Below are positions 2,709 through 56,232 of a stretch of 64,000 nt of DNA, piece after piece (position 1 is the stretch's first letter; the number at the start of each line of letters is the position of its first letter). The DNA comes from an uncultured Gammaproteobacteria bacterium (GTDB lineage: Bacteria > Patescibacteriota > Patescibacteriia > UBA9934 > CAZDDW01): the NCBI GenBank assembly GCA_965231015.1, contig OZ246408.1, positions 857,908 through 921,907 of the forward strand, in the 5' to 3' direction. A model generated the notes under the pieces. It had not been told where the DNA came from. It saw only the letters and a program-made list of their open reading frames with translations, and made no database searches. The translations under genes were made by a program, and so were the position numbers.

Positions 2709-3070
2709 TCAAGACCGAAAAACGCCAGTAAACCAATGAGCAGGGCCAGGATAGCTAGAGCTGCTTGGAAATCATTTTTAACCCAACGCCAAAGACGATA
2801 TTTAATTTTGAGCTCACTTCTACCTGCATTTGTTATTCCAACGTAAATCCCTGGAATTCCGCCACCGCTTCTACCGTTCTGTTTAATTATGAAATTTTGT
2901 GACTCCAATGTATCACAGGCATGAGCGACACGGGATTTGAAATAGTCAACATGTTTTCTTACATCTTCTTTATACCCTCTATCAAGCAAGGCTTTTTTTA
3001 GATTAGAAACAGTAATCTTCATATCATCTCGTACTAACACCTTTAGAATGTCCTTGTGTAATTTTTCCAT
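2678..3070 (-). CDS. small protein (130 aa): N-terminal winged-helix-like region, C-terminal TM helix; embedded between hsdM and hsdS
   Basis: ORF begins 2 nt after hsdM stop and overlaps hsdS start by ~31 nt; C-terminal hydrophobic stretch AALAILALLIGLLAFFGL; no family recognised. Confidence 0.45.
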   Translation of the reverse strand: MEKLHKDILKVLVRDDMKITVSNLKKALLDRGYKEDVRKHVDYFKSRVAHACDTLESQNFIIKQNGRSGGGIPGIYVGITNAGRSELKIKYRLWRWVKNDFQAALAILALLIGLLAFFGLDWNWFVNLWQ

Positions 3071-3072
3071 AC

Positions 3073-5112: not shown

Positions 5113-5963
5113 ATAAGTGGTTTGAATAGTTGTGTGTACTCATGGAGATGAAAAACTCTATGTCTATCTTTTCCGGTCACCTCTTTGAGAACGTTAAGTT
5201 TTACAAGCTCCTTAAACAATTCATTGATCGTCTGGTAAGTACTTTTCTCTTGATAGCTATTCTGAAGTTCCTTGATGGTAAACTGCGGCTTTTCCATCAT
5301 ACATGGTAACAGACCCTGAAAAAGATCTTTGCGTTGTTTGGCAAAGCCATTCGTCCGCTCCTTATATTTTCCATCTAGTGTCCTGATGTTGTGAAGTAGA
5401 CTGATGATTAATTCTGTCTGTTCCGCAACTTGTTGATTTGGGTCATGGGTGTTGTTCTGCATCCGTGAAAATATAAGAATGGGGGCCAAGAGAACACTTC
5501 GTTCGACAAGATACATGTTGGCAATCAAATCTGCCACTAGTTCATTGCCTTTATGAAATGGCGATATTTGTAAAAAATTCTGATATAACTGGATAGCGCT
5601 TTCGAAAATATTATCTTTCGAGTTGTGCTTGACTAACAACCTTTGCAGTGCCTTCTGTTTATCTTGGGAACGCCATTCACCCGGCTGGTAATTATATGTC
5701 TCTTTTTGCGAAAAGATCTGACGATGCAGTGAAGCGATGGCGTCTAAAAAATCTTCTCTGACCTTCGTCGGTTTAATAAAGGCAGTGATAAACCGCGATT
5801 CAGTCACTGGTAGCTGACCATGATTCTCATCAATTATTTGCTGTGTAAAAGCTAATTTAGCCAAAGAATAGCGCATTAATAGCGCAAATTGCGATGATTC
5901 TATCCATCCATTGATCTTCCCGATGTTGAGAAGTGCTAATTTTTCTGGCGCAATATGTTGCAT
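5109..5963 (-). CDS. Fic/Doc-family-like protein with degenerate active-site motif and C-terminal wHTH-like domain; first gene of the R-M operon
   Basis: Segment ISPFHKGNELVADLIANMYL aligns to the Fic HPFx[DE]GNGRxxR motif but with H->S, D->K, G->E, R->L substitutions; stop overlaps hsdM start (5109-5112). Confidence 0.45.
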   Translation of the reverse strand: MQHIAPEKLALLNIGKINGWIESSQFALLMRYSLAKLAFTQQIIDENHGQLPVTESRFITAFIKPTKVREDFLDAIASLHRQIFSQKETYNYQPGEWRSQDKQKALQRLLVKHNSKDNIFESAIQLYQNFLQISPFHKGNELVADLIANMYLVERSVLLAPILIFSRMQNNTHDPNQQVAEQTELIISLLHNIRTLDGKYKERTNGFAKQRKDLFQGLLPCMMEKPQFTIKELQNSYQEKSTYQTINELFKELVKLNVLKEVTGKDRHRVFHLHEYTQLFKPLI

Positions 5964-7263: not shown

Positions 7264-7358
7264 GGAAACCCGAGATGGTTTAGGTGAGAAAATTTTCCTA
7301 TTCGATAGAATAATAATATAACTGTTAGTATTGGGTGAATGTGCCATAATGCCCGCGT

Positions 7359-7862
7359 ATGATGGAGCAAGCTGAACAACTGGTGCGCGAGCGGATTACG
7401 GGCACGCGCAAAGGCATGGACAAGCCGGCCTGCACGCATTCGTTCAATGTGCGGGATATTCTGGCGAGGCACGGGTTTTCCGGTGAGGTGCAACTGGCCG
7501 GGCTGTTGCACGATGTGATCGAGGACGGGGGCGTGAGTTTGGACGAGCTAACAGCGCTCGGGTTTGGCGATCGGGTGGTAGAGCTCGTTAATCTGGCTTC
7601 GCACGACCTCGCGGTCGAAGGCTCGTACGAGCGCTGGGTCAAAATGATCGCGCGGCTGATTGACGCGACTGACGCCGAGGCTTGGGCCATCAAGCTCGCT
7701 GACATCCGCGACAACCTGCGCGACAGCCATGCTATGCCGAACAAAGAACAACAACTCTTGCTCCGCGAAGTCAAGGTCCGGCTAATGCTGGAGCTAACTA
7801 AAAATTTCAATGACCTGTCCGGTCTGCGCCAAGAACTGGCAAACGAGCTTAAGGCAATCTAG
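7359..7862 (+). CDS. small HD-domain hydrolase of RelA/SpoT type (small alarmone hydrolase-like)
   Basis: HSFNV...LAGLLHDVIEDGGVSLDELTALGFGDRVVELVNLASHD matches the SpoT/RelA HD hydrolase core (H...LLHDvIED...FG..V..LV). Confidence 0.55.
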   Translation: MMEQAEQLVRERITGTRKGMDKPACTHSFNVRDILARHGFSGEVQLAGLLHDVIEDGGVSLDELTALGFGDRVVELVNLASHDLAVEGSYERWVKMIARLIDATDAEAWAIKLADIRDNLRDSHAMPNKEQQLLLREVKVRLMLELTKNFNDLSGLRQELANELKAI

Positions 7863-7896
7863 TTTTTACTATTCGTTCGAATTAGAGCAAAAACAA

Positions 7897-7916
7897 AGAA
7901 GCCCCGAAAGGCTTCT
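7897..7916. terminator. 7-bp hairpin (AGAAGCC-CCGAAA-GGCTTCT) between convergent genes
   Basis: Perfect inverted repeat; no clear U-tract. Confidence 0.3.
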
Positions 7917-7936
7917 GAAGTGAGGATAAAGAGTGG

Positions 7937-8287
7937 TCAAGGATCAGTAGGACAAAGTGCGAGATTGCGATTCTGGAGCTCACCACTCTGTTCGGCTTTG
8001 AAGGTGGCAGTGTAGGTGCCGTCGGCATTGGGAGTAAGTTCGGTCAGGAAGTGGCGCTTGTAGGCCTCAGGGTGTCCGACCGCCAGCTCCTTGGTGAAGC
8101 GGGTGTTGTTCATGAACATGCGCACGTTTTCGATGCACTTCACATGTTCGGTGTCGATCACGCACTCGGCCCATTCGAGCCGGTTCTGGCTTTGGCAGTG
8201 CAGGACCGGAAGTCCGATCATGATGCCGATAATCAGTAGCCCGCCGACCAGGCTGACCCAGATATTTTCTTGCTCGCGCTTTTCCAT
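7937..8287 (-). CDS. small membrane-anchored protein (start taken at MEKREQ..., N-terminal TM helix)
   Basis: ORF in GC-rich island; hydrophobic IWVSLVGGLLIIGIMIGLPVL; longer ORF-track start at 8365 less likely. Confidence 0.4.
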   Translation of the reverse strand: MEKREQENIWVSLVGGLLIIGIMIGLPVLHCQSQNRLEWAECVIDTEHVKCIENVRMFMNNTRFTKELAVGHPEAYKRHFLTELTPNADGTYTATFKAEQSGELQNRNLALCPTDP

Positions 8288-8485
8288 GACTACTCCTTCG
8301 AAAGATCGTGCCTCAAACCTAGCAGAAAAATGAACACTGGTCAAGCCCATAAATTGACAAACCAAGCTTAAATGCTATAGTTATTTTTGAGAGGAGAAAA
8401 CAGCGCTTCGCGGTGCCTTACACATACTGATCGCAGTGGTCATATTACTTCATTTCCTTCAAAATCGACGACTGGTTGGACTAAC

Positions 8486-8773
8486 ATGAACAAGAACGCC
8501 TATTTTAGCAGCCTGATCCGCGAGCACGGCTTTAGCCGAGTGGCACACCAGATCGTGTACGAGCACGAGCGGCCGAGCAGTTCCCGCGCTGACTACTGGC
8601 GCCTTGAATTCACTGCTCAGACTGAGGACGATATGTACGTGCAAGGCCAGTTCACATCCGTGGGCTCGTCTGCCGGACAGCCAGCGCAAATCACCGGTCA
8701 GGTCACGAACCTACAGCCGATTTCAGCACAACAGTACCAACGGCTGGTGGCTGAATACGGCGGATTGGACTAG
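8486..8773 (+). CDS. hypothetical protein (start at MNKNAYF)
   Basis: ORF in GC-rich island, no family recognised. Confidence 0.3.
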   Translation: MNKNAYFSSLIREHGFSRVAHQIVYEHERPSSSRADYWRLEFTAQTEDDMYVQGQFTSVGSSAGQPAQITGQVTNLQPISAQQYQRLVAEYGGLD

Positions 8774-8781
8774 GGGGAAAG

Positions 8782-9231
8782 ATGAACCTGTGGCTCAAAC
8801 TGCAACACCTGTTCAGCCGGCGCTTCCAGGCGCGTTGCGGACACCGGACTTACCGGCGTGATCGCATCCAGGCCTATGGCTACAGCACCATCGTCACGCT
8901 CAGGACCGAGCACGAAACCACTCCCTACTGCCACCGCTGCCTGGAAGCCATGACCGCGCTGTGCCCGATCTGCCATTCGTCAATCTTCATTGGTGAACCG
9001 GTGCGGATCGTGGTGCCGCTGCGCGAAGACTTCGAAGTTCAGGAGGGCATGCGCACCTTTGACATTGATCAAAACCACATCAAAATGGTGGCCTGCCTGC
9101 GTTGCGCGGATACCATTGCGCTGATCAGCGGCATCTGGGTACCGCCAGGGGTGGTCCAGCTGATCGAATCCCCGCTCGAGCATGCTTGGCGCACTGGACA
9201 GCCCACAGTGGCCGAAATCTACTACCACTAA
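8782..9231 (+). CDS. Cys-rich hypothetical protein (CHRC...CPIC zinc-ribbon-like)
   Basis: ORF with CxxC x2 spaced ~12 aa; GC-rich island. Confidence 0.4.
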   Translation: MNLWLKLQHLFSRRFQARCGHRTYRRDRIQAYGYSTIVTLRTEHETTPYCHRCLEAMTALCPICHSSIFIGEPVRIVVPLREDFEVQEGMRTFDIDQNHIKMVACLRCADTIALISGIWVPPGVVQLIESPLEHAWRTGQPTVAEIYYH

Positions 9232-9314
9232 CTCCCGAGCCCTTCCTGAAGGGCTCGTTTCTTTTTGACAAATTAAAAGCGACCCGCATGATAACAGGTC
9301 GCGATTACGTTGTG

Positions 9315-9740
9315 TTAGCGACAAAGGTAGTAGTCTAAATCCCAGTCATCAACCGGGTTACCACAGGTGTCTTGTTCCATGACACACTCCCAGTCGTTAG
9401 TGAGCAACTTGGAACGGTGATGTCGGGGATGATCTTCGAAATAACTGATCTCTTCGTCAGTCAAATTAAGCCGATCGCGCAGTTTATCGCGCTCGAACAG
9501 AATCGGGTCCGTTGATGAACATTCTCGGAACATCGAACTGCACAAGATGCACTTGCACATCTGTTCGTGTTCGTAGTGTAAGTCTGCGAGCAGATGTATC
9601 ACCTTCTGGTCATGCTTGTCTGGATTCGGTCCGCGCTCATACCACAGAAATATTCCCACGAATGGATCGATCAAGATTAGCAAATACACCCCAATGATTA
9701 GACAAGAAATTATTAGATCTTTCCAATCTTGACGACGCAC
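9315..9740 (-). CDS. small membrane-anchored protein, tandem paralog A
   Basis: N-terminal TM helix; shares ERDKLRDRLNLTDEEISYFED / ...DLDYYLCR with adjacent ORF (QRDQLRDRLQFTDVEYEEFVQ / ...SLDYEYFAR). Confidence 0.5.
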   Translation of the reverse strand: MRRQDWKDLIISCLIIGVYLLILIDPFVGIFLWYERGPNPDKHDQKVIHLLADLHYEHEQMCKCILCSSMFRECSSTDPILFERDKLRDRLNLTDEEISYFEDHPRHHRSKLLTNDWECVMEQDTCGNPVDDWDLDYYLCR

Positions 9741-9742
9741 AA

Positions 9743-10186
9743 CTACCTCGCGAAGTACTCGTAGTCCAGGCTACCGTCGGCCTTAGTGAAAGCCGGGGGC
9801 TTATCCGGACAATGCCAGCTGGCAAGCACCAACTGCTCGCGTGTGGAGTCAGCACGTTGCACGAACTCTTCATACTCGACGTCCGTGAACTGGAGCCGGT
9901 CGCGCAGCTGATCGCGTTGGGTCAAGGATTCGGCCGAAGTCGGAAGGTCTTCGAGGTCAGTACCGTAGTATTCGCAAGTACAGGCCAGGTAGAAGTTGTT
10001 GTGTACCTCGGCCAGCTCGTCGAGCACAGCCTGGTTATCCTCAGACAGTGGTGGTTGAGTCAGGCCGTGGATCAGACCAATCACCCCGCAGATCACGAAG
10101 ATGACAAAGATCCCACCGATGACGTACATTTCTTTACGCATACTCTCTCCCGGAAAAAGTTCTGAATTCAGCATAGCAAAAATCAC
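9743..10186 (-). CDS. small membrane-anchored protein, tandem paralog B
   Basis: Same architecture and conserved blocks as 9315..9740; 2-nt spacing between the two genes. Confidence 0.5.
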   Translation of the reverse strand: MIFAMLNSELFPGESMRKEMYVIGGIFVIFVICGVIGLIHGLTQPPLSEDNQAVLDELAEVHNNFYLACTCEYYGTDLEDLPTSAESLTQRDQLRDRLQFTDVEYEEFVQRADSTREQLVLASWHCPDKPPAFTKADGSLDYEYFAR

Positions 10187-10270
10187 GACTTTGTCAAGGT
10201 TATTTCCTTGACATCTATCACTCCCAGTGCTATACTACCGCCCGCGTTCATATCAACACGGGGAGAAAAC

Positions 10271-26782: not shown

Positions 26783-27169
26783 TTACATTTTTATTTCTAC
26801 GTCAACCCCTGCCGGTAAATTCAAACTCATCAATGAATCAACTGTTTTTTCGCTTGGGTTAACGATATCGATCAAACGCTTGTGCACACGCATTTCGTAC
26901 TGATCACGACTGGTTTTGTGAACGAAGGTAGACCGGTTCACGGTATACTTACGCTTTTCAGTTGGTAATGGAATTGGACCCAAAACCTTAGCCCCGGTTC
27001 GCTCAGCAGTTTTGATAATGGTTGCTGTAGCCTGGTCGATGATCTTGTGGTCGTAAGCACGAATCTTAATTCGAATTCGCTGCTTGGTTTTGTCTTCAGT
27101 TTTGTTGGTTGCTTTGTCAGTCACAAATTTCTTCGAAAGAACAGGTTCAATGTTAGCGAGGCGAGCCAA
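26783..27169 (-). CDS. rpsJ: 30S ribosomal protein S10 with ~28-aa N-terminal extension (start codon uncertain; TTG at 27167-27169 in ORF track)
   Basis: [31 protein letters not shown] core; no in-frame ATG near the canonical start. Confidence 0.9.
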
Positions 27170-27192: not shown

Positions 27193-28383
27193 TTAATTAA
27201 CAATCTTGGTTACTACACCAGCTCCAACAGTTCGTCCACCTTCACGAATAGCAAAACGCTGCTGTTCCTCAAGAGCAATCGGCTGGATAAGCTTAACGGT
27301 TGCACCATTAATGGTGTCACCTGGCATAGCCATTTCTACTCCTTCTGGCAAGGTTACTTCACCGGTAACGTCAGTAGTTCGGATGTAGAACTGTGGCTTG
27401 TAACCCTTAAAGAATGGCTTGTGTCGTCCACCCTCTTCTTTGGTAAGAGCATACAGTTCACACTCAAACTCGGTATGTGGGGTTACAGTACCAGGAGCAG
27501 CCAAGACCTGACCACGCTCAACTTCATCCTTCTTGGTTCCACGGAGCAGGATTCCAGCGTTGTCACCGGCCTGACCTTGATCAAGAGTCTTGTTAAACAT
27601 TTCCACACCAGTAACAGTGGTCTTGGTAGTGTCTTTAATACCAACCATTTCAACTTCCTCACCGGTCTTAACAATTCCACGCTCGATTCGTCCAGTTACA
27701 ACTGTTCCACGTCCCTCAATTGAGAAAACGTCTTCAATCGGCATCAGGAATGGCTTATCAACGTCACGTTGTGGTTCAGGAATATATTCATCAAGCTTGG
27801 CAAGTAGTTCTTTAATTGGCTTGGCAGCCTCTTCGTCTGAAGGATTCTCAAGAGCCTTAAGAGCAGAACCACGAATAATTGGAGTTTCATCTCCTGGGAA
27901 TTCGTACTGCTTAAGAAGGTCTCGAATTTCTTCTTCAACCAGGTCAATAAGCTCCGGGTCATCTACCATGTCAACTTTGTTTAAGAAAACAACAATGGCA
28001 GGAACACCAACCTGACGAGCGAGCAAAATATGCTCACGAGTCTGTGGCATTGGACCATCAGCTGCTGACACAACGAGAATTGATCCGTCCATCTGAGCAG
28101 CACCGGTAATCATGTTTTTTACGTAGTCGGCGTGTCCTGGACAGTCAACGTGAGCGTAGTGACGCTTATCGGTTTCGTACTCAACGTGAGAAGTAGCAAT
28201 GGTAATTCCACGCTCTTTTTCTTCCGGAGCGTTGTCAATCTGGTCAAAACCCTTGGCCTGACCACCACCCATGACAGAAGCCACGGCGGTAATAGCCGCA
28301 GTAAGAGTGGTTTTACCGTGGTCAACGTGACCAATGGTACCCACGTTTACGTGCGGTTTTGATCGTTCAAATGTATCGGCCAT
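27193..28383 (-). CDS. tuf: elongation factor Tu
   Basis: [23 protein letters not shown]-motifs. Confidence 0.98.
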
Positions 28384-28444
28384 AAATTTGGCTAAAATTG
28401 GTTATTAATATAGTTAAATAATTGCCTTTTTTGTAGGCGGCACT

Positions 28445-28473
28445 AGTATAACAAAAAGCCTAAAACAATGCAA
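28445..28473 (-). promoter_or_regulatory. sigma70-like promoter for tuf (TTGCAT-N17-TATACT on minus strand)
   Basis: rc of 28468-28473 = TTGCAT, rc of 28445-28450 = TATACT; ~55-nt leader to tuf ATG. Confidence 0.45.
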
Positions 28474-28513
28474 GCCCCAATTCCCCATGTTTTCCACCTA
28501 GAATTAGGGAATT

Positions 28514-28891
28514 TTACTCCACTGGTTCGAGGTAGAATTGCTCGTCTTCGCCGTCATCGTTCTCTTCTGTACTTTCTTCACTTAAATTAGCTAAATTTTC
28601 GTTCGGAAAAGCTTCATCAGTCAAGTTTGGGCTATATGATGGAGATTCTGGCTCATAATTTGGAGTTTGAACCGGGGGTTCTGGAGTTGGTGGAACTGGC
28701 TGAGTGGTCTGTTCCAGAGCTAAATCATCATCAAAATAGTCGAATTCCGCGGTTCCCAGGGCCTCAATAATAGCCTCATACTCATCAAAATCCATGATAA
28801 CAACAGCCTGTTCCCCTTCCGGGTCAGTCACCACCATGCGGTCGCCAGTGCGGCGAACCAGGTCTAAAATGCGCTTAAATTGGTTATTCAT
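28514..28891 (-). CDS. acidic protein: Phd/YefM-antitoxin-like N-terminal ~50 aa + disordered Pro/Glu-rich C-terminal tail
   Basis: FKRILDLVRRTGDRMVVTDPEGEQAVVIMDFDEYEAIIEAL resembles YefM/Phd fold; no adjacent toxin gene. Confidence 0.35.
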   Translation of the reverse strand: MNNQFKRILDLVRRTGDRMVVTDPEGEQAVVIMDFDEYEAIIEALGTAEFDYFDDDLALEQTTQPVPPTPEPPVQTPNYEPESPSYSPNLTDEAFPNENLANLSEESTEENDDGEDEQFYLEPVE

Positions 28892-29254
28892 ATTAGGCTT
28901 ATCTTACCGATTTTTAGGGGATTGTCAAGGGAAGGCTTGGAAGGTCAGGAAGGCCCAGCCTTCTTGGCCTTCTCTCGCCCGTGGTTCCCTAACCGGACCC
29001 GCGGGTGTTTTTTGTTTCCGCTACTTCGAGCACGACGGAGGTTAATGGACATTTTTGACCGTTCCGGTCAGACGGGGTGACGAGGACTGTTTGAAGCCGA
29101 GCGTCCACCAAAACAAAAAAAGCGAGGCAAGTCCCGCAGTCAAGAGAAAAATGTTCATTTTCTACCTCCGGCGAGCACAGAAAGGCGGCCGGTTTCTTTT
29201 TTCCGGTTTTCTTTGCCGGTCCAAAGAAAACCGGGCTATTTTTCCAACTCGAAA

Positions 29255-29277
29255 GCCCCAGGGTTAGACCCTGGGGC
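29255..29277 (-). terminator. 10-bp hairpin GCCCCAGGGT-TAG-ACCCTGGGGC downstream of GC-island gene 29326..30609
   Basis: Perfect stem; followed on minus strand by UUUCGAGUUGG (weak U-tract). Confidence 0.35.
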
Positions 29278-29325
29278 TGACGTGGATCTCCCACGAGGGG
29301 AGATAATGTGAGGAGGGTTGGTAGT

Positions 29326-30609
29326 CTACTTGACCTGCTCGGTCTTGTAGACCGTGCAGGTCTTGTAGGTACCAGTGGCGTCCTTGCTGTTGCGAGCGCA
29401 ACGACGGTCAACGCCGTCCGGGCACTCGAAGAGCAAGATGTGGTGGTCCAACAACTGGTAGCTCTGGCAGGTGGTCGATTCCTGATCGACCAGCTCGGAG
29501 CTCGACGTGCACTCGTCGGCGTGAGCCGGCGGATTCTTGCTCCCGTAGTCCATGATCGGCACGAGGAGCGCGAAGGCCAGCACAGCTGCGGCCACCGCGG
29601 CCTTGGCCACGGTACGACCGACCTGACGCGGCTGGCGCGTCGACATGATCTCGGTGATCTCGGTCTCGTCGTAGGTGACGTCGTCGTCCGGGTCCAGGCT
29701 CTCGATGACGGGCTCGGTGGCGGCCAGGCGTGCCTGGGCCATCAAACCATCCTCGATCCCGTTCACTCGACCCTTGAGCGCGTCGTGTTCGTCAGTCTGG
29801 ATCCGGATGATCTCGCGAAGCTCCGCGAGGTCTCGCTCCGACATCTGTCGGACGAACTCGGCGATCATCTCGGTCTCTTCTGATCGCACCTCGGCCTCGG
29901 TTCGGACAGTTCCGGCCAGATCCGTGAGACGCTGATCGATCTGTGCGATCTGCCGCGAACGGTCGGCGCCGTGCTCGAACAGTCGCTTGATGTCGGCGTG
30001 ATGCTCGGCCGTACGGGTCTTGAGCCCCGTCACGTCGCGGCCGTGTCCGTCCACGCGGTTCGTCAGCTTCTCCGCATCAGCTCGGATCTCGGTCCGCTCT
30101 TTGTCGGCCCGGTTGATCTGCGTCACCATATGCCGGGTCAGATGAACGAACGCTCGCTGGCGCTCTGCCAGCTCGAGCCGCTGGCGTCGAGCCGTCCGTT
30201 GCTCGTCCTCGATCGCCTTGAGCTTGTTGTGCACCTTCAGGTTCAAGTTCCCGAGTTGTCTCTTGATCCCGGCCCGCTCGTCGTTGGCGATCTTCCGGCC
30301 GGTGAGGAGCTTGGCCAGCTCCTTACGGAACTCGTCGAAGTCCTGCCTGAGCTTGGGAACCTCGCGCCGCTCGATCTGCTTGATCCTGGCTTTCAGGGTC
30401 TTCTGCTTGCGCACGAGCAGATTCAACTCCTCGTCCACATCGAGCTCCAGCACGAGGTCGTCCAGCTCTTCACCAAGGTCGACATCATCCGCATCGTCCG
30501 GCTCGGCACCACAGAACTCGGGCACATCGATGTAGCTCTGACTGGCTCGTTCGGTCTCGCACCTGTTCAAGGTCTCGAGCCAATGAGCAGCCTGCTTATC
30601 ACTCGTCAT
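29326..30609 (-). CDS. coiled-coil protein with C-terminal TM anchor and Cys-rich extracytoplasmic tail (start at MTSDKQ, RBS GGGAGGAGGAA)
   Basis: Long E/R/K-rich heptad region, hydrophobic AAVAAAVLAFALLVPIM, terminal Cys cluster; G/C-ending codon bias. Confidence 0.5.
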   Translation of the reverse strand: MTSDKQAAHWLETLNRCETERASQSYIDVPEFCGAEPDDADDVDLGEELDDLVLELDVDEELNLLVRKQKTLKARIKQIERREVPKLRQDFDEFRKELAKLLTGRKIANDERAGIKRQLGNLNLKVHNKLKAIEDEQRTARRQRLELAERQRAFVHLTRHMVTQINRADKERTEIRADAEKLTNRVDGHGRDVTGLKTRTAEHHADIKRLFEHGADRSRQIAQIDQRLTDLAGTVRTEAEVRSEETEMIAEFVRQMSERDLAELREIIRIQTDEHDALKGRVNGIEDGLMAQARLAATEPVIESLDPDDDVTYDETEITEIMSTRQPRQVGRTVAKAAVAAAVLAFALLVPIMDYGSKNPPAHADECTSSSELVDQESTTCQSYQLLDHHILLFECPDGVDRRCARNSKDATGTYKTCTVYKTEQVK

Positions 30610-30873
30610 CGGGGGTTCCTCCTCCCGTTGTTGGTTGCAAATTTTAAATGCCACTGCCCTACTTTTAAGCCAAAACTGGGCTTAATTTCGAACTAAGTAA
30701 ATTATCAGAAAAAGGGTAGTTTGTCAACCCCCTGTCGTACGGGACTGACCTCGTTCAACAAGGTCAAGAGTTATCCTATAATTAGAAGCCCCCGACACAA
30801 GCGTCACACATTCGTTCGTGTGAGCCCATGTCAGGGGCAGAGCCGCCGAGATCTTCGGCGGGAAGGGGGTTTT

Positions 30874-31938
30874 TTAGGACTGGGGGTGAAGCGCGTTCCA
30901 GTCCGCTTCGAGTGCCTGGAGCATCTCGTCGCGGTGCGGGAACGCCTGATCCACGAGCCGCAGCTCGTAGTGGGCGCGCTTGACGCGCGCTTCGGACTTG
31001 GTCTTGTCGAACCGGGTCGACAGCGTGGCGATCGCCCACTTGTAACGAGCGATCTGATCCGCGCCGGAGTGACCTCGACCGGCGTCCACGTACCGGTTCA
31101 AATACGTGAGCTCCATCTCGCCGAGGCTCGTCTTGATCTCGGAGACCGTCTTGTCCTCCTGCTGGAGGACCCCGAGCTTGAACTCGAGGTCACGGAAGTC
31201 GGCTCCCGCGGCCCGCCAGTGGCTTGCGAGCACGGTCCCGGATTCGAGGGAATCGAGCCCGATGGCCGTCACGACCTCCGGGTCGGCGTTGCGGATGGCG
31301 GTCACGACCTGGAACACGACGTTCGGGTCGGCCGTGGCGTGCGCCATGATCGCCGGCAGCTCCGGACACTCCGGGAGCAGACCGAGCTGGGTCGGCACCT
31401 CGACGGGCATACCCGCGGCCACGTAGGCCGCGAACACGTTGGACCAGTTCTGGAGGTAAATGGGTACCTCCTGCTCCCCGGCCACCACGGCGCCGTCACG
31501 ATCGAACTCGCGGAGCATGACCGTGACGATGTTCGGTCCGACTTCGCGCGGGAGCTGGGGCCAGCCGGTCGTGTCGATCGACTCGAACAGCTTGGCCGCG
31601 GCGTAGTAGGGCCGCAGCTTCTTCAGGGCCCTGGCGTTCATCTCGTCCACGTGAACCTGCGGGTCCACGGGAACTTCGATCGCGGGTTCAGGCTCGGACT
31701 TGGGCTCGACCGCGGGTGCGGGTGCGGCCGGACTCGCCGGCTGTCCGGTGGCCGTCTCGACGACCTGCTCGGGCTGCTCCACAGCCCGCTTGTTCTTGAC
31801 CGCCTTGACGATCAAGAAGGTCGCGGTCAGTCCGACCATGATCAAGAACACCACCAGACCGCCGACGGCGGGCCACATCCAGCGCGGCAGCGGTGCCTCT
31901 TCCGTGAGAACGGGGGATGAAACATGTTCCGTGGTCAT
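30874..31938 (-). CDS. membrane-anchored hypothetical protein (start at MTTEHV; N-terminal TM helix WMWPAVGGLVVFLIMVGLTATFLIV)
   Basis: Longest ORF in this GC-rich segment, sensible composition; antisense 399-aa ORF is R/G/L-rich. Confidence 0.5.
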   Translation of the reverse strand: MTTEHVSSPVLTEEAPLPRWMWPAVGGLVVFLIMVGLTATFLIVKAVKNKRAVEQPEQVVETATGQPASPAAPAPAVEPKSEPEPAIEVPVDPQVHVDEMNARALKKLRPYYAAAKLFESIDTTGWPQLPREVGPNIVTVMLREFDRDGAVVAGEQEVPIYLQNWSNVFAAYVAAGMPVEVPTQLGLLPECPELPAIMAHATADPNVVFQVVTAIRNADPEVVTAIGLDSLESGTVLASHWRAAGADFRDLEFKLGVLQQEDKTVSEIKTSLGEMELTYLNRYVDAGRGHSGADQIARYKWAIATLSTRFDKTKSEARVKRAHYELRLVDQAFPHRDEMLQALEADWNALHPQS

Positions 31939-32105
31939 CTCTTCCTCCTTGCTATTTTGGGCCCTTTCGGGCTCCCGTTTTGGGGCCCGTACAGGGCGAA
32001 TCAAAGCGTCCGAGGGTGAAAAATTTCACCTGTTACGAACGACGTAATGTATCATATTTTAGCCAAAAAGTCAACCCCTAAAGGTTGTTTTTGGCCAAAA
32101 TATAA

Positions 32106-32136
32106 CTAAAAAGGGGTACCCACAAGGGGCACCCCT
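32106..32136 (-). terminator. rho-independent terminator immediately downstream of fusA
   Basis: minus-strand AGGGGUGCCCCUUGUGGGUACCCCU hairpin followed by UUUUUA. Confidence 0.5.
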
Positions 32137-32154
32137 ACAATAATTTCCTTTTCC

Positions 32155-34245
32155 TTACTCCGCTTTCTTGCTTCCCCGCTTTTCAATAATCTCATCTGCC
32201 ACATTCTTTGGCACATCTTCATAGTGATCAAATTCCATGCTGTAGCTGGCACGACCCTGGGTAATACTTCTAAGCTCCGTAGCGTAACCAAACATTTCAG
32301 CCAGTGGAACATGAGCCTCAACAACCTTCATGTTTCCCCGGTCTCGCATTTCCTGAATTTGAGCCCGTTTTGCGTTCAAGTCTCCGACCACAGTTCCCAT
32401 AAACTCTTCCGGGGTCACAACTTCAACCGCCATGATCGGCTCAAGCAAAGTAATTCCAGCATTCTTGGCCGCAGCCTGAAAAGCCATAGAACCGGCGATC
32501 TTAAAGGCGGCTTCAGACGAGTCAACTTCGTGATAGCTTCCGTCATATACAGTACACTTGATGTCGAGCACCGGATATCCGGCCAGAACTCCGCGTTCCA
32601 TAGCTTCCTTAACACCCTTTTCAATAGGTCCAATAAATTCCTTTGGAATCACACCACCCTTAATTTCATCATAAAACTCAAACCCGGTTCCCTGCTCAAG
32701 CGGTTCCAAGCGTAACCAACAGTGCCCATACTGTCCACGGCCACCTGATTGGCGGACAAATTTTCCTTCAGCCTCAGCGGTTTTCTTAATACTTTCTTTG
32801 TAGGCCACTTGCGGAGCACCCACGTTGGCCTCCACTTTGAACTCACGTTTCATGCGATCCACGATAATGTCCAAGTGCAGCTCTCCCATTCCGGAAATGA
32901 TGGTCTGGAGAGTATCATCATCAGTTCTCACCTGGAAGGTTGGATCTTCTTCGGCTAACTTGGTAAGCGCCACACCCATCTTTTCCTGGTCAGCTTTGGT
33001 CTTTGGCTCAATCGCCACAGAAATAACCGGTTCTGGGAAAGTAATGGATTCAAGCACTACTGGATTATCCGGGTCACACAAAGTCTGACCGGTTGTAGTG
33101 TTCTTAAGTCCTACCACAGCAGCAATATCTCCGGCATAAATTTCATCGATTTCCTCACGCGAGTTAGCGTGCATTCGCAGCAATCGACCAATTCGTTCCT
33201 TGTTTCCGGTTGAAGCATTCAAAACATACGATCCTGACTTCAAGACGCCGGAATAAACTCGGACAAAAGCCAGTTTTCCAACGAAAGGATCGGTTGCAAT
33301 CTTGAAAGCCAAAGCCGCAAACGATTCTTCATCACTCGCATGGTGCTCAATCTTTTTCTCTTCATCATCCGGATCAGTTCCCTCAACTGCCGGTACCTCA
33401 AGTGGGCTTGGCAGGTAATCAACCACGGCATCAAGCAAAGGCTGAACTCCCTTATTTTTCAGAGCTGACCCACAGAACACAGGAATAAGTTGCAAGCTAA
33501 CCACAGCTTTGTGTAATACCTTTTTTAAATCTTCATGAGGGATATCTTCGCCGGACAAATACTTTTCCATTAAGGCTTCATCATTTTCTACAATGGCTTC
33601 AATCAACTTGCCACGCCATTCTTCTGCGGTTGCCTTCATGTCCTCCGGAACATCAACCACGTCCATATCTTTTCCAAGGTCATCATTGTAAATAGTGGCC
33701 TTCATGGTTAGAAGATCAATGATTCCCTTAAAGTTATCTTCAGCACCGATTGGTAGTTGAGCTGGCAGGGCCTTGGTAGTCAATCGTTCGTGGATTGAAT
33801 CCAAGTCTGCAAAGAAGTCAGCTCCAGTTCGATCAAGTTTATTGATATAACAAATTCGCGGCACGTTGTATTTATCAGCCTGGTGCCAAACAGTTTCTGA
33901 CTGTGGCTCAACACCGGCCACACCGTCAAACACAACCACACCACCGTCGAGCACACGCAAAGAACGCTCCACCTCAACAGTGAAGTCAACGTGTCCCGGG
34001 GTGTCGATAATGTTCACACGGTGATCTTTCCAAAAACAGGTAGTCGCCGCAGAGGTAATGGTAATTCCACGCTCCTGCTCCTGCTCCATCCAGTCCATTT
34101 CCGCTTCACCTTCGTGCACCTCACCGATTTTATGCTTCTTGCCGGTGTAGAAAAGCACACGCTCGGTCACGGTTGTTTTACCAGCATCAATGTGAGCAAT
34201 GATTCCGATGTTACGAGTTTTTTCAAGAGAATATTCTCGAGGCAT
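32155..34245 (-). CDS. fusA: elongation factor G
   Basis: [18 protein letters not shown]-motifs; 696 aa. Confidence 0.98.
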
Positions 34246-34283: not shown

Positions 34284-34748
34284 TTATCTTGCAAAGTGGG
34301 CAAACGCTCGGTTGGCCTCAGCCATCCTCTGCACGTCTTCTTTCTTTTTAACAGCGTCGCCTTCGTTGTTAGCAGCAGCCATGAGTTCATCAGCTAATCT
34401 TTCTGCCATAGGCCGACCACTTTTTGATCGAGCCGCAGACAGGATCCAACGATAGGCTAAGGTGAGCCGACGCTCACCCCGCACCGGGTGCGGAATCTGA
34501 TAGTTAGCTCCACCAACTCGACGTGAACGAACCTCAAGGGCCGGTCCCACGTTCTTAATGGCGGCCTCGAAGACTTCGACCGGATCTTTTTTGGTTTTAT
34601 CCGCAATAATATCAAAACAATTATAGACCACCTGACGAGCAGTGGTCTTTTTTCCGTCATACATGACGTAATTAATCAGCTTGGCAATTTCCAGATTGCC
34701 AAACTTTGGATCCGGATTTAACCGGCGTTTAGAGGCACGTTTTCCACG
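34284..34748 (-). CDS. rpsG: 30S ribosomal protein S7
   Basis: [18 protein letters not shown] start, S7 profile. Confidence 0.95.
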
Positions 34749-34827
34749 CATAGTATTCTTCAAGTTACCGCTTACTTCCCCCGTGGAACAAGGTACTCGG
34801 CAACTGACAGTTAGTAATTAGTGAGTG

Positions 34828-35250
34828 TTAACTCTTTTTTGGCTTTTTAGTTCCGTACTTGCTTCGTCCCTGATTTCTTCCTTCAACTCCGGCGGTATCA
34901 TATACTCCACGGACAATGTGATATCGCACACCTGGCAGGTCAGGCACTCGGCCACCTCGAAGAAGCACAATTGAGTGCTCCTGAAGGTTGTGACCTTCCC
35001 CTGGGATATAAGCAGTAACTTCAGTTCCGTTAGAGAGCCGAACACGAGCAATCTTTCGGATAGCTGAGTTTGGTTTCTTTGGGGTAGTTGTGGTCACCTT
35101 CACACAAACTCCACGTTTAAACGGACTACCTTTGGGAAGATTGGTAGTTTTTCGGTGCAGAGTATCCAAAGTATACTGCATGGCAGGTGACTTACTCTTG
35201 GTTTTGGTTGTCTTCCGCCCTTTGCGGATCAATTGACTAGTAGTAGGCAT
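34828..35250 (-). CDS. rpsL: 30S ribosomal protein S12
   Basis: [12 protein letters not shown]...PKKPNSA..RVRL. Confidence 0.95.
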
Positions 35251-38748: not shown

Positions 38749-40068
38749 CTAAGGAGTGAGTTCTGATTGATCAGCTTGTTCGACTTCGAGAGCATAGAGC
38801 TCCTGAAGCGATCCGGCGATCATGTACATGCTAACCTTGCCCTCAGCAAGTGAAGCCGCATTTGCCAAAGCAATCCCGGGCTTTCCATCACCCTGATAAG
38901 CTCGGCCATTCAAAACATTATCCACCACGTCCTTGTAGGCCATGCCTTTTGGAACCTGGGTGTTCAGAAGCGTCACCGCCACGTTGCCACCGAAGCGATC
39001 AATGACCTGCATGGCACAAGCCGCCGCACTGTCAGCCGCGATCTTGCGAGCGTTGACTTCGAGCACGAAGACAACAACCTCGCCTGCGTGGTGCACCACG
39101 ATCAGATCGACTCCGATAGTGCGTGGACGATCAACCCCAATGCCGAGCTGAACCGCCTGCCGACCGATCACGTCTACAATGGGTCGGGCGACGATCCATT
39201 CCTTGGCCGGAATAACAGACTCGCCAAACGCGGTACGGTCACCAATGTGGGCGTCTCCGTCCGTGAGCTGTTCGGCCGAAAACAACACCCGATGTCGATC
39301 CTTTTCTACGAGAAGCACCACGGCTACCTCGTGCATGTCAAAGCGGTCTCGCGGATATCCAGCCTCAGCAATCAACCCGTGGTGCAGGTGAGTACGCAGA
39401 AAATCACTAACTTCGGCCCTGTCCTTCTCCGGAGTCCATCGAAGGATACCATCTCCCCCATCAAAGCCCGGTCGCTTCAAAAAGATGGTGTCCGTCTCGG
39501 GCAAACCACGATCGGCCACGTCATGCTCAATGAGACGGCGCACTCGTTTGATCTCTTCGATCGTGCTCACAAAACGCCAAGGAGCAAATACTCCGGTTCC
39601 GTTGGCAAGCACTCGAGCTTCCAATTTATCATCGAGCTTGACGGCAATCTTGGGGTGAGGCGCAGTGATCTGTTCGGGACGCAGACCAAGTGCCTGGGGT
39701 AGCTGCTCAACATCACGACGGATGAAAAAGTCCAAGTCATGTCCGGCTTCAGTAAAACTCTGCATGATTCGCAGTAATTCCGGTGAGTCGGTAATAGCCT
39801 GGCTGATGTTAGCCTCACTAACCAGGATGAGATCTTTGGCCCCGACCTGCATTCGCTGATGATCAGTATGACAGGCCTCGATGTTTGATCGGGCTTGTTC
39901 ATTTGCTACACAGACCGCGGCTACATGCGGGTAGATCATACCGCGGCTCGGGTACCCGGGCAGAAGTCCCGAGATCCCGTGCAGAAAATGAAACGGATAC
40001 ATGTCGTGAACGTGCACCTCGGGATTGAGATACACCTGATCCAACAAGGCTCGTTTGTTAGAATCCAT
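38749..40068 (-). CDS. ATP-grasp-like protein (putative carboxylate-amine ligase); start at MDSNKR
   Basis: C-terminal LIVVHHAGEVVVFVLEVNARK resembles ATP-grasp Mg/ATP-binding strand (vlEvN). Confidence 0.4.
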   Translation of the reverse strand: MDSNKRALLDQVYLNPEVHVHDMYPFHFLHGISGLLPGYPSRGMIYPHVAAVCVANEQARSNIEACHTDHQRMQVGAKDLILVSEANISQAITDSPELLRIMQSFTEAGHDLDFFIRRDVEQLPQALGLRPEQITAPHPKIAVKLDDKLEARVLANGTGVFAPWRFVSTIEEIKRVRRLIEHDVADRGLPETDTIFLKRPGFDGGDGILRWTPEKDRAEVSDFLRTHLHHGLIAEAGYPRDRFDMHEVAVVLLVEKDRHRVLFSAEQLTDGDAHIGDRTAFGESVIPAKEWIVARPIVDVIGRQAVQLGIGVDRPRTIGVDLIVVHHAGEVVVFVLEVNARKIAADSAAACAMQVIDRFGGNVAVTLLNTQVPKGMAYKDVVDNVLNGRAYQGDGKPGIALANAASLAEGKVSMYMIAGSLQELYALEVEQADQSELTP

Positions 40069-40227
40069 GTTATTCTGGGCCCCCTGTTTTGTTGTATGGT
40101 CCTTGACTTTTAACAAAGTCACAAATAAGTAAAAACAATTTTTAACCATTTGTGAATTTGTTAAACAGTCGGCCGCGGACTCAAGGTTCATTTATGAAAC
40201 CCTGGGTCCGCGAACCGAGAAGACTAG

Positions 40228-41469
40228 TCACCAGTTGAGCTCGGCGTGACGCTCGTACACCGCATCCCGCACCCGAGCCATGCTGTCAAAATCCGGACCA
40301 AAAGTCGCGAAGTAACAACTTCCGCACTGTGGCAGGAAGTTATAAGGGACAAGCCCGAGCCGGGTCTGCACGGTGAGCAACTGATCTGCGAAGGCGTTCA
40401 GAATCTCGGAGTAGTCAATGTCCTGCGGAATCTTCATGTTGCGATTATCAAAAGCCGCCACCCGACCGTACAGGAAATAGCTGGCCGTCACCGGATAGTA
40501 GGTGGCCGTGGCTCGACCATCGACCTCGCAGGTGGCCACCTCCCCGGTCGTGAAGTTGATCATGTGGTCAGCCCCACCGCGGCCGAAAAAACCCATTGCC
40601 TTCAAACACGCAATAGACTTTTCCGTAGCACACATGACCTTCTTGTAGATCTTGGACGGCAGATTCTTTGGCAAAGTGAAGCTACCGGCGAAATCCGTTT
40701 CGTCACCATCGGTCAAGATGTGCTGACCAAATACACCAAGAATCTCATGGGCTCCCCTCGGGTAAATTACGAACGGGGTCGAGATATCCTGGTCGTGCGG
40801 GAAGTATTCCTGAACCACTACCAGTTCGTCAGTCAGATTTCTGAGTCGCTCATCCTCTTCGCTCGTGACATTGAACTGTCCAAGACTGCTAGCCTGGCTG
40901 GTCGGCTTGATTCGTACCTTCTCGAAACGCCCAAGACTGAGCAAGTGGCGCACGAGTGAGCCAACATGAGCCGGTGTGGTGAAACCGCCCACCGGCACCC
41001 GCAGACCCTTAATGCTCCGACCTACCGTTTTGAAACCAGCTCCGTTTCGAAAATAGCACTCACCCATATTCTGCTGAAACACATCCTTGCTGTTGGCCTG
41101 CCGGCATGTTTTGAACGGCGGCAAGTTCACAGGTACATCCAGCCAACAAAATGCTTCACGTAGCCGTGTGGTACGACCGGAAAAAAATTCAATGTCAGAC
41201 CGGCGAAGCACCTCCAAATGGGCTTGCTTTTCCACAGACACGCTCCGACTCAATCCGGCATCATGAATTCGCAGTCGAATGAGGTGATCTGGCGGACAGC
41301 AAAGACCAAGTGAAGCCAAATGAGGCAGTTCGGGCAAATCGTCCTCTCCGACCACCAACAGATAATTGTTTGGCCCAGTCGCTATCGCGGCTCGACGCCA
41401 GTACTCCATCAACTGCCAAGGCATGTTGTCGATAGAATCGACAGTATCATGAGCCAACACGATGGTCAT
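40228..41469 (-). CDS. second ATP-grasp-like / GspS-like hypothetical protein; start at MTIVLAHD
   Basis: ELVVVQEYF and GADHMINFTTGEVATCEVDGR segments reminiscent of ATP-grasp core; weak. Confidence 0.35.
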   Translation of the reverse strand: MTIVLAHDTVDSIDNMPWQLMEYWRRAAIATGPNNYLLVVGEDDLPELPHLASLGLCCPPDHLIRLRIHDAGLSRSVSVEKQAHLEVLRRSDIEFFSGRTTRLREAFCWLDVPVNLPPFKTCRQANSKDVFQQNMGECYFRNGAGFKTVGRSIKGLRVPVGGFTTPAHVGSLVRHLLSLGRFEKVRIKPTSQASSLGQFNVTSEEDERLRNLTDELVVVQEYFPHDQDISTPFVIYPRGAHEILGVFGQHILTDGDETDFAGSFTLPKNLPSKIYKKVMCATEKSIACLKAMGFFGRGGADHMINFTTGEVATCEVDGRATATYYPVTASYFLYGRVAAFDNRNMKIPQDIDYSEILNAFADQLLTVQTRLGLVPYNFLPQCGSCYFATFGPDFDSMARVRDAVYERHAELNW

Positions 41470-41919
41470 TAAAACCCCCTGGTGATTAGTTGTATTTAAA
41501 AGAGCAAGATTACTCTCCCCAAGTGAAGACGCGCTCAAATGGGGCACCGATTCCCGTTAGAAGGGACGAGCGCTTGTAAAAAGCTGCTCAGCCAGTTCGA
41601 CTGGCATTGGTGAACACGTCTTCGCTTGGAAAGGCCACTTAGTAAAACAAAACTGCCGCACTTCATTTAGCGCGGCAGTTGAAATCAAACTAACAGGAAC
41701 TAGTTTATTCAACCACCGACGCACCAATGACAAAGTAAAAAGCGCGGCAATTGTGCCAGAGCATAATGGTCTTGTCAATTGATACGTGGGAATTTTTCAT
41801 ATTTCAATGGATAAAATGATACCCTACGCTTAAATACGTGTCAAATAGGCTTATCTACACCTCTTGAAAAAAATACACATATGGACTATAATGAGGCCAA
41901 AATTAGATATACTCTATTT

Positions 41920-42516
41920 ATGGCAAAAGACAGACCAAGCCCAAAACAGGAGACCACCTATCTAATGGTCAAGCCGGATGGTGTTCGTCGCGGCATCATT
42001 GGTGATATTGTAAAGCGAATTGAAGAACGTGGCCTTAAGATTGTTGCCATGCGCATGGAACAAGCTGACCACGACAAGATGGACAACCATTATCCTAAGG
42101 ATGAAGAGTGGATCGCTCGAGTTGGAGGAAAGACCTTGAAGACTTACGAAAAAGCCGGATGGGATGCTAACGAAGAACTCGGCACCGATGACCCGCTAGA
42201 AATTGGAAAAATGGTTCGAGGATGGTTGATTGACTTCATGACTTCAGCCCCAGTTGTAAAAATGGCTGTGCAAGGAGTCCGAGCCGTTGATATGGTTCGA
42301 AAAATTGCTGGACCGACTATTCCAGCTGACGCTGACATGGGAACCATTCGTGGTGACTACTCAATCGACAGTCCGTTGATCGCCAACGAAGAAAAACGAC
42401 CAATCTTGAACATTGTGCATGCGTCTGAAACACCAGAAGAAGCAGAGCACGAGTTGAAGCACTGGTTTGAAGAAGATGACATTTGCGAATACAGTCGCAT
42501 GGACGAGAACATGTAA
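41920..42516 (+). CDS. ndk: nucleoside diphosphate kinase with ~40-aa internal insertion
   Basis: TYLMVKPDGVRRGIIGDI, IRGDY, NIVHASE motifs. Confidence 0.85.
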   Translation: MAKDRPSPKQETTYLMVKPDGVRRGIIGDIVKRIEERGLKIVAMRMEQADHDKMDNHYPKDEEWIARVGGKTLKTYEKAGWDANEELGTDDPLEIGKMVRGWLIDFMTSAPVVKMAVQGVRAVDMVRKIAGPTIPADADMGTIRGDYSIDSPLIANEEKRPILNIVHASETPEEAEHELKHWFEEDDICEYSRMDENM

Positions 42517-56128: not shown

Positions 56129-56232
56129 TGGTGAGGCCAGATGGAATCGAACCATCGACCGCTGGGGCTCCTCTGGACCATCTAGAACTTGACGACCCAT
56201 ACCCAGTGCTCTACCAGCTGAGCTATAGCCTC
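56129..56232 (-). tRNA. tRNA gene (104 nt, CCA-encoded) with ~28-nt insertion/intron-like segment in the anticodon-loop region; isotype undetermined
   Basis: acceptor GAGGCUA/UGGCCUC, U8A9, D-arm GCUC-AGCUGGUA-GAGC, anticodon stem CUGGG/CCCAG separated by 35 nt instead of 7, variable CGGUC, T-arm GAUGG-UUCGAUU-CCAUC, discriminator A + CCA. Confidence 0.55.

Follow-up and report, generated by a model that had tools for sequence, protein, structure and literature searches.

A GC-rich locus between fusA and tuf in a bacterium of the Candidate Phyla Radiation: probably an old, clade-specific set of envelope genes with maintained foreign-type coding signals

In Escherichia coli and Bacillus subtilis the genes of the str operon follow each other in the order rpsL-rpsG-fusA-tuf. 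The same order is met on contig OZ246408.1 (assembly GCA_965231015.1) of an uncultured bacterium assigned to the Patescibacteriota, of which 64,000 nucleotides (nt; contig positions 857,908 to 921,907) were analyzed and are here called the window. The minus strand carries most genes of this window (~44% G+C, GC) and reads M50 peptidase, rpsL, rpsG, fusA, ~3.77 kb of other DNA, tuf and rpsJ, with strong Pfam support throughout. Which genes fill this gap, and does their GC-rich composition record a recent arrival? An earlier note on this DNA had proposed horizontal transfer into a core operon, or else misassembly. We conclude, with a probability of roughly 60%, that the gap holds an old, clade-specific and fast-evolving locus for envelope proteins whose foreign-type coding signals are actively maintained.

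Per kb, the GC content rises from 0.41-0.48 to 0.59-0.66 over ~29300-32000 (0.62-0.72 in 200-nt windows). The block is interrupted by a dip to 0.45 at 30600-30800 and its final ~430 nt (28892-29325) reach just 0.52-0.55; of the jump to ~60-65% over ~3 kb described in the earlier note the height is right, but the plateau is not continuous. Two open reading frames (ORFs) on the minus strand occupy it, ORF-A (354 amino acids, aa; 30874-31938) and ORF-B (427 aa; 29326-30609), each with one predicted transmembrane helix, and the two membrane-anchored proteins on one strand that had been noticed before are thus real. Their GC fractions at the first, second and third codon position (GC1/2/3) are 0.69/0.43/0.87 and 0.66/0.39/0.82, respectively, which is the pattern of genuine coding frames of the high-GC type; ratios of nonsynonymous to synonymous divergence (dN/dS) of 0.36-0.39 and the conservation of the transmembrane helix and of Cys residues are further evidence of coding. 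Native genes show a GC3 of 0.29-0.46 (0.41 across 12,117 native codons). The second peculiarity is the initiation signal. GGAGG, AGGAG or GAGGA stands 4-12 nt upstream of none of ~40 native starts, those of tuf, fusA and the ribosomal protein genes included, while ORF-A starts from the ATG behind the Shine-Dalgarno (SD) sequence AAGGAGG (31944-31950, minus strand) and ORF-B from the ATG behind GGGAGGAGG (30618-30626, minus strand). The two genes are therefore set apart from the resident ones on two counts, codon composition and initiation. A reverse scan for SD motifs at plausible gene starts returned only ORF-A, ORF-B and one or two others, namely a membrane ORF of a second GC-raised region, island 1 (AGGAG at ~8297, minus strand), and perhaps a plus-strand ORF starting near 41965.

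A comparison of synteny, one of the checks proposed in the earlier note, recovers the order fusA, GC-rich gene(s), a small acidic ORF and tuf in three diverged relatives. The nearest, represented by loci L003-L005 from three runs, has a fusA product 96% identical in aa (82% in nt), with ORF-A' at 63% and ORF-B' at 70% aa identity and a GC3 of 0.80-0.82. In the second, L087/L088 (ENA, JGI), EF-G is 94% identical over the C-terminal 201 aa present on the contigs, and ORF-A'' (239 aa, 39% identity, GC3 0.92) and ORF-B'' (378 aa, 32%, GC3 0.80) follow; an overlap of 784 identical nt joins L088 to L091 and thereby reaches the acidic ORF (70% identity). A third extra gene lies in between in this lineage, a 310-aa ORF on the opposite strand with GC3 0.67 (L088 3218-4150, minus strand, continuing in L091 3-686), for which no family match and no counterpart in the window were found. 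The third relative, L093 (GCA_964480695.1; fusA 88%), carries on one 27.6-kb contig a single GC-rich ORF (424 aa, N-terminal helix, GC3 0.88) before the acidic ORF and tuf. In L089 (GCA_054038955.1; fusA 90%, tuf 91%) the site is empty: fusA, a terminator-like hairpin, a gap of 125 nt, the promoter of the acidic gene, the acidic ORF and tuf follow each other at flat GC. Measured against L089, the added DNA of the window comprises ~28929-32105 and is bounded by the fusA terminator and the promoter of the acidic gene. In a neighbour-joining tree of fusA the relationship is ((window, L003), L088), with L089 and L093 outside. The syntenic site is empty in L089 and occupied in L003, L087/L088 and L093. 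The ancestor shared by at least three of the sampled lineages, and probably by four, already carried the cassettes, and one lineage appears to have lost them since.

The sharp GC steps, together with breaks of the retrieved Logan contigs within this stretch (29206 and 29052), could suggest an assembly chimera in which DNA of a member of the Candidate Phyla Radiation (CPR) was joined to that of a high-GC organism. But the exact ORF-A protein is found on Logan contigs from two runs, which agree with the window at 100% identity from 34098, within fusA, down to 29206, so that fusA to ORF-B is contiguous in two other assemblies. A further Logan contig of 40.7 kb matches the window at 100% identity from 29052, across the acidic gene, tuf and the S10 operon, as far as 20514, where the fetched stretch of that contig ends. 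Moreover, GC-rich ORFs in orthologous loci from four other projects are linked to fusA on one flank and to the acidic ORF with tuf on the other, conserved promoters lie where the GC dips, and a palindrome of 33 nt (29203-29235, minus strand) contains the break at 29206. No 31-mer from 29053-29205 is repeated in the window. As independent contigs are identical and three diverged lineages, sampled in other projects, repeat the gene order, the misassembly considered earlier is ruled against, and we regard a chimera as having a negligible probability.

How old are these genes? Between window and L003, fusA shows a synonymous divergence (dS) of 1.15 and a dN/dS of 0.025, ORF-A a dS of 0.68 and a dN/dS of 0.39, with substitutions mostly at codon position 3, and ORF-B a dS of 0.61 and a dN/dS of 0.36; both cassette proteins evolve fast under weak purifying selection. 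Since synonymous differences level off earlier where composition is strongly biased, we compared instead the retained synonymous signal, i.e., same-codon identity above the expectation for independent draws, at codons with conserved amino acids. It amounts to 0.28 for fusA, 0.29 for ORF-A and 0.37 for ORF-B. Being comparable to fusA in this respect, the cassettes are as old as the split between window and L003, not younger.

This bears directly on the most obvious explanation, namely that the genes came into the str region recently, by horizontal transfer from a high-GC donor, and that their GC-richness is the un-ameliorated footprint of this event. A GC3 of 0.82-0.87 against ~0.41, an SD that native genes lack and the empty site in a related genome (L089) all speak for it. 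However, the same cassettes occupy the same site in lineages separated by a fusA dS of ~1.15 and more, their silent-site divergence equals that of fusA, and the inter-ORF promoters are AT-rich and conserved among cassette-bearing lineages. The related contigs are 77-82% identical to the window in nucleotides, which excludes that they are near-identical strains. No donor homologue occurs in the databases searched, and no integrase or transposase gene, no tRNA and no conserved flanking repeat was found at the locus. (The only flanking repeat at the locus, 28383-28411 / 28865-28893, was considered as an att-like site; it is not conserved in L089 or L093 and was taken as chance.) Recent transfer therefore appears very improbable. 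Of the transfer into a core operon claimed in the earlier note, the extra DNA relative to L089 and its foreign-like composition stand, but its freshness does not: the locus predates the split of lineages at a fusA dS of ~1.15 and has no donor that could be found.

If the composition were a fading footprint, it should have relaxed toward that of the genome over this time. In a two-state relaxation (G/C versus A/T), calibrated on third positions of fusA and tuf and starting from a GC3 of 1.0, the ceilings are 0.76 for window-L003, 0.68 for L088, 0.69-0.72 for L093 and 0.64-0.69 at the depth of L089. The observed values (ORF-A/ORF-B) of 0.87/0.82 in the window, 0.82/0.80 in L003, 0.92/0.80 in L087/L088 and 0.88 in L093 all lie above them. 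Silent changes polarised with L088 as outgroup were sorted into exchanges between G and C, changes from G/C to A/T and changes from A/T to G/C; the counts are 11, 3 and 2 for ORF-A, 2, 12 and 6 for ORF-B and 0, 19 and 23 for the C-terminus of fusA. Pairwise, exchanges between G and C compare with those between G/C and A/T as 25 to 38 in ORF-A, 11 to 63 in ORF-B and 6 to 176 in fusA. Amelioration toward the recipient composition was thus not found, with GC3 at 0.80-0.92 above the ceiling and no excess of losses of G/C. That the third positions of the cassettes turn over yet stay G or C is well supported but not proven. Both the GC3 of 0.8-0.9 and the SD, alien to the resident genes, have been kept despite a near-saturating turnover of silent sites, and a GGAGG-type SD precedes ORF-A and ORF-B in all lineages.

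A regional GC-biased process, for instance biased gene conversion at a recombination hot-spot, might produce the same picture with no selection on composition. It would explain the free interchange of G and C at silent sites, and both the spacer behind ORF-B (0.52-0.55) and the extra ORF of L088 (GC3 0.67) are indeed above background. Against it, at the promoters GC is back to background within ~100 nt, and the non-coding spacer stays far below the third positions. The codon families are also uneven: Gly and four-fold Arg codons, which of all families have the strongest A/T bias in native genes, are without G/C bias in the cassettes. The family preferences of cassettes and native genes correlate weakly (r 0.49, p 0.03; no significant Spearman correlation), and this serves as no main argument. 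Given the GC drop at promoters and the modest GC of the spacer, selection acting on the coding sequences fits somewhat better than a purely regional bias, which we consider unlikely.

Each cassette consists of a near-consensus sigma-70 promoter, a structured leader of ~90-105 nt, a strong SD, the ORF and a hairpin terminator, and these non-coding parts are far better conserved than the encoded proteins. The promoters themselves are AT-rich like the resident DNA and conserved in all cassette-bearing lineages. All elements described in the following lie on the minus strand. A promoter scan places that of ORF-A, TTGACT-N17-TGnTACATT with an extended -10, at 32046-32074, and the alignment shows it conserved in window, L003, L087 and L093. 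In the leader of ~105 nt (31939-32045), RNAalifold predicts hairpins at 32007-32041 and 31961-31997 comprising 26 pairs, nearly all of which are retained in three lineages, and the first hairpin occurs in L093 too. Downstream of the ORF a terminator region of two hairpins (30784-30861) folds in four lineages, with compensatory changes at 5 pairs. The protein ORF-A has a predicted N-terminal transmembrane helix, a Pro/Ala-rich linker and a domain of ~250 aa.

ORF-B is preceded by a promoter-like site TTGACA-N15-GATAAT (30697-30727), read from the sequence because its 15-nt spacer falls outside the 16-18 nt range of the scan. It coincides with the dip in GC and is almost identical in L003 and L087. 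The leader (30610-30696) forms a hairpin TTAAGCC...GGCTTAA (30665-30685), whose stem is retained and whose loop varies in a three-lineage alignment. Behind an acidic N-terminus the protein shows a predicted coiled coil of ~240 aa, one predicted transmembrane helix (residues 330-349) and a tail of ~75 aa; long helices also appear in the (poor) AlphaFold2 (AF2) model. The helix RTVAKAAVAAAVLAFALLVPIMD is identical in window and L003, and four Cys residues of the tail are conserved, as judged by eye, across all three lineages, which together suggest that this C-terminal tail lies outside the cell. The 3' element (29250-29324) combines a CCAACCCTCCTCA motif with two hairpins, the second terminator-like, and shows 7 pairs with compensatory changes in three lineages. 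Directly 3' of the stop codon, CTACCAACCCTCCTCA (29309-29324) contains CCUCC, the complement of the SD, and is near-invariant in three lineages. A role of the CCCTCCTCA motif after ORF-B as anti-SD regulator was considered and dropped, as RNAalifold pairs it locally with a downstream GGGAG; it is kept merely as a note.

The conservation of these flanks also invites another explanation. According to it the gap is a hot-spot at which the coding parts are repeatedly swapped by recombination from an unsampled GC-rich pool (the host or other CPR strains), with promoter, leader and terminator serving as fixed ends and fusA and tuf as long homology arms. Non-coding flanks that are much more conserved than the ORFs, the L093 ORF with no detectable homology to ORF-A, cargo that varies by lineage (the extra ORF of L088, the pilin-like genes of L006 described below) and abundant silent differences between G and C would all be expected then. 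But the similarity of ORF-A and ORF-B is graded along the fusA tree, 63-70% and then 32-39%, the retained silent-site signal equals that of fusA, and sequences of such a pool occur in none of the databases searched. We consider replacement of this kind rather improbable. A single origin is favoured by the homology of promoter, first leader hairpin, SD and terminator among the four occupied loci (window, L003, L087, L093), compensatory changes included, and by the retained synonymous signal given above; by these shared non-coding parts the L093 gene is the positional counterpart of ORF-A.

Taken together, the following course of events seems the most probable to us. The gap between fusA and tuf in this CPR-like clade would be a permissive slot, as fusA has its own terminator and the acidic gene and tuf have their own promoters, so that extra genes could be tolerated with no disturbance of the neighbours. 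In the window the slot houses two self-contained expression cassettes, one for a protein anchored in the membrane via its N-terminal helix (ORF-A), the other for a long, presumably cytoplasmic coiled coil with an anchor near its C-terminus and a small four-Cys tail predicted outside the cell (ORF-B). A single, early entry from a source with high GC and SD-led genes may lie at the origin of the two genes, and their composition would now be held by selection or a local bias for G/C at silent sites instead of being a fading footprint. The products may be envelope proteins, plausibly at the cell surface or in contact with the host of an episymbiotic cell.

Several points weigh against this reading. 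Homologues of ORF-A and ORF-B outside the locus and the clade are absent from an index of 5.8 billion proteins, a full HMMER scan of 1.84 billion representatives with an ORF-A profile found only the L087 protein, and GenBank phages, PLSDB plasmids and IMG/VR contain none. That the genes were acquired long ago from a donor of high GC that uses SD sites is hence made plausible by composition and SD. The L093 protein aligns with ORF-A colinearly but at a BLASTP E of 0.15 and an hhalign E of 0.025, values at which homology is not demonstrable; its coding part was possibly replaced rather than diverged. The relaxation model is crude and calibrated on genes under selection, and the polarised counts are small. 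The topology of ORF-A is ambiguous, as the charges flanking its helix differ among homologues, and the AF2 models of ORF-A and ORF-B are poor, with mean confidence scores (pLDDT) of 56 and 52. Finally, 29053-29205 is the only stretch that the retrieved independent contigs do not cover.

What might the proteins do? Neither has a sequence match in Pfam, NCBIfam, PHROG or PDB, nor a confident fold match. Their fast divergence, the tightly conserved expression signals and the pilin-like cargo of the same slot in L006 make roles in the envelope or in host contact the likeliest, at slightly better than even odds. In that locus, from a metagenome-assembled CPR genome of 29% GC, the fusA-tuf gap measures 3.5 kb and contains two genes (2726-4129 and 4173-5519) for type-IV-pilin-like proteins of 467 and 448 aa with FTL(V/I)ELL N-termini, both of native composition. 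With these genes in the same gap, it would be a recurrent home for lineage-specific envelope genes. A more far-reaching idea, namely that selection maintains a separate expression regime with high-GC codons and a strong SD in an AT-leaning, SD-less genome, is tentative and has clearly less than an even chance. In its boldest version, which the data allow, the signals would be tuned to another translation environment such as that of a high-GC, SD-using host; the message or the DNA may be used in the host, or the proteins may mimic or interface with envelope proteins of the host. In a milder version, selection may favour unusually stable or tightly controlled mRNAs of abundant, fast-evolving surface proteins.

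The acidic gene and the tuf promoter belong to the resident genome. The acidic ORF (28514-28891, minus strand) has native composition (GC3 0.41) and a promoter TTGACA-N16-TAAGAT (28901-28928, minus strand; promoter scan), the -10 of which ends ~9 nt before the ATG, so that the mRNA would be nearly leaderless. The earlier note had counted this ORF as part of the insertion; its composition and its presence in L089 and in five distant CPR loci contradict this. About 40 homologues were found, PF02604 is recognized in most of them, and the C-terminus of the closer ones is an invariant QFYLEP(V/I)E. They lie immediately upstream of tuf in L089 (4843-5211), L093 (5232-5549), L006 (5729-6010), L008 (7494-7889), L009 (5667-6212), L010 (7591-7836) and L013 (3897-4319), with fusA on the opposite side except in L009; the last five are the more distant CPR loci and share the N-terminal motif. 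In the window the N-terminal ~45 residues match Pfam PF02604 (Phd/YefM) just above threshold (31.9 bits, cutoff 29.8, E 1e-7), while the match to NCBIfam phd_fam is below the cutoff of that model; a long disordered acidic tail follows and ends in QFYLEPVE. In contrast with Phd/YefM type II antitoxins no cognate toxin adjoins the ORF, its own promoter lying upstream and tuf directly after it, and the same holds for L089, L093, L008, L010 and L013. Because a toxin partner is missing and the position beside tuf is fixed across CPR, the gene should not be filed as a toxin-antitoxin module, and the protein could be associated with translation factors rather than being an antitoxin.

The tuf promoter TTGCAT-N17-TATACT (28445-28473, minus strand) was correctly recognized in the earlier note, but that tuf is re-driven by it on account of an insertion is not supported, since it is conserved in L089 with its empty site and in L093. 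As this promoter and the acidic ORF are both present in L089, the str cluster was divided into separate transcription units in the clade already. The terminator claimed within 20 nt of fusA was confirmed 18 nt past the stop codon (32106-32136, minus strand; a 10-bp stem with 7 G-C pairs, then TTTTT), and by eye the alignment shows a terminator-like hairpin in the same place in L089. With this terminator and separate promoters for the acidic gene and tuf, also in L089, fusA and tuf do not form a single transcription unit. The flanking genes, all on the minus strand and identified with Pfam, are rpsL (34828-35250), rpsG (34284-34763), fusA (EF-G; 32155-34245; GTP_EFTU, EFG_III, EFG_IV and EFG_C; GC3 0.45), tuf (EF-Tu; 27193-28383) and rpsJ (26783-27169).

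The spacer behind ORF-B (28929-29249, minus strand) holds the palindrome mentioned above and a possible ORF for a hydrophobic peptide of 38 aa behind GGAGG (29042-29158, minus strand; with a T7 run), of which no record exists in the gene collection. A hairpin CCCGCGG(G/T)TCCGGTT(A/G)GGGAACCACGGGCG (28976-29005, minus strand) is conserved in L088 (~3150-3180), where the surrounding spacer cannot be aligned. As both retrieved Logan contigs end at its edges, 29206 and 29052, the stretch 29053-29205 may be variable in sequence or hard to assemble. Known RNA families do not rise above chance in 28300-32300. Nor do the cassettes form an integron-like array, there being no integrase, no common repeat that bounds them and an own promoter for each. 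Three long ORFs antisense to the cassettes were rejected as genes: 30721-31920 and 29971-30696 (GC1/2/3 0.83/0.45/0.67 and 0.76/0.35/0.67) mirror the GC3-rich sense frame and are by-products of it, and 29308-29883 was rejected likewise, the argument from positional GC applying to the first two. All three are on the plus strand.

Two other regions of the window had been regarded as matching the GC-rich block (island 2). Island 1 (7300-10200) and island 3 (38749-41547) are only moderately raised in GC, with a GC3 of 0.54-0.75, show no DNA or protein similarity to island 2 and differ in content, and this parallel had to be abandoned. Island 1 contains an HD-domain ORF and several small ORFs with no family match, four with a predicted transmembrane helix, and island 3 two ORFs of 440-480 aa with no Pfam match. 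Elsewhere, the tRNA-Arg(TCT) gene (56133-56220, minus strand) exceeds the standard tRNA length with its 88 nt and an Rfam match that extends over 101 nt, which suggests an insertion or intron.

Compared with known systems, the locus shares the gene order of the E. coli and B. subtilis str operon, and 6-164 nt separate fusA from a downstream tuf in the non-CPR loci retrieved; in the window and in related CPR, in contrast, fusA is terminated, the acidic gene intervenes and tuf has its own promoter. Variable surface loci between core genes are known from the pneumococcal cps region (dexB-aliA) and from O-antigen clusters (galF-gnd). By analogy the fusA-tuf gap would likewise be a fixed slot between conserved genes with fast-diverging, lineage-specific, envelope-related cargo, and with other cargo in the same slot elsewhere (L006). 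It differs by holding one to three small orphan membrane proteins instead of biosynthetic clusters and by being GC-rich rather than AT-rich, and exchange between lineages is for it a hypothesis. Genes for abundant surface proteins such as S-layer proteins have a strong promoter and a long structured 5' leader, which the near-consensus promoters, the leaders, the strong SD and the strong terminators of the cassettes may resemble, although ORF-A and ORF-B, known here from sequence alone, lack a signal peptide and similarity to S-layer families. In Patescibacteria, genomic islands and transferred genes beside translation genes including tuf have been reported, often with novel sequences (mSystems 2025, PMC12455944). 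The present locus agrees with them in atypical composition, in novel "phylogenetically ambiguous" genes, in its location by tuf and in its presence/absence polymorphism. Unlike them it has no mobility genes, tRNA or repeats, has been passed down in diverged lineages with no relaxation of its composition, and has a conserved AT-rich promoter for each gene. As such the locus consists of ordinary accessory genes in a permissive gap; what is unusual is the long-term maintenance of foreign-type coding signals.

An island of deviating composition is usually taken for the dated scar of a gene transfer, which fades as it grows older. Here an island-like signature, a GC3 of ~0.85 together with SD-led initiation, has outlasted a near-saturating turnover of silent sites in several lineages of a reduced and probably host-dependent bacterium. 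The adjacency of fusA and tuf, deemed universal, is routinely broken in CPR by a conserved small acidic protein. If selection keeps the genes of the two cassettes "foreign", the dating of transfers by composition can be badly wrong in such genomes, and distinct classes of genes in a small genome may be written in two coding dialects. The pair would then also be an easily located candidate for fast-evolving proteins of the envelope or of host contact.

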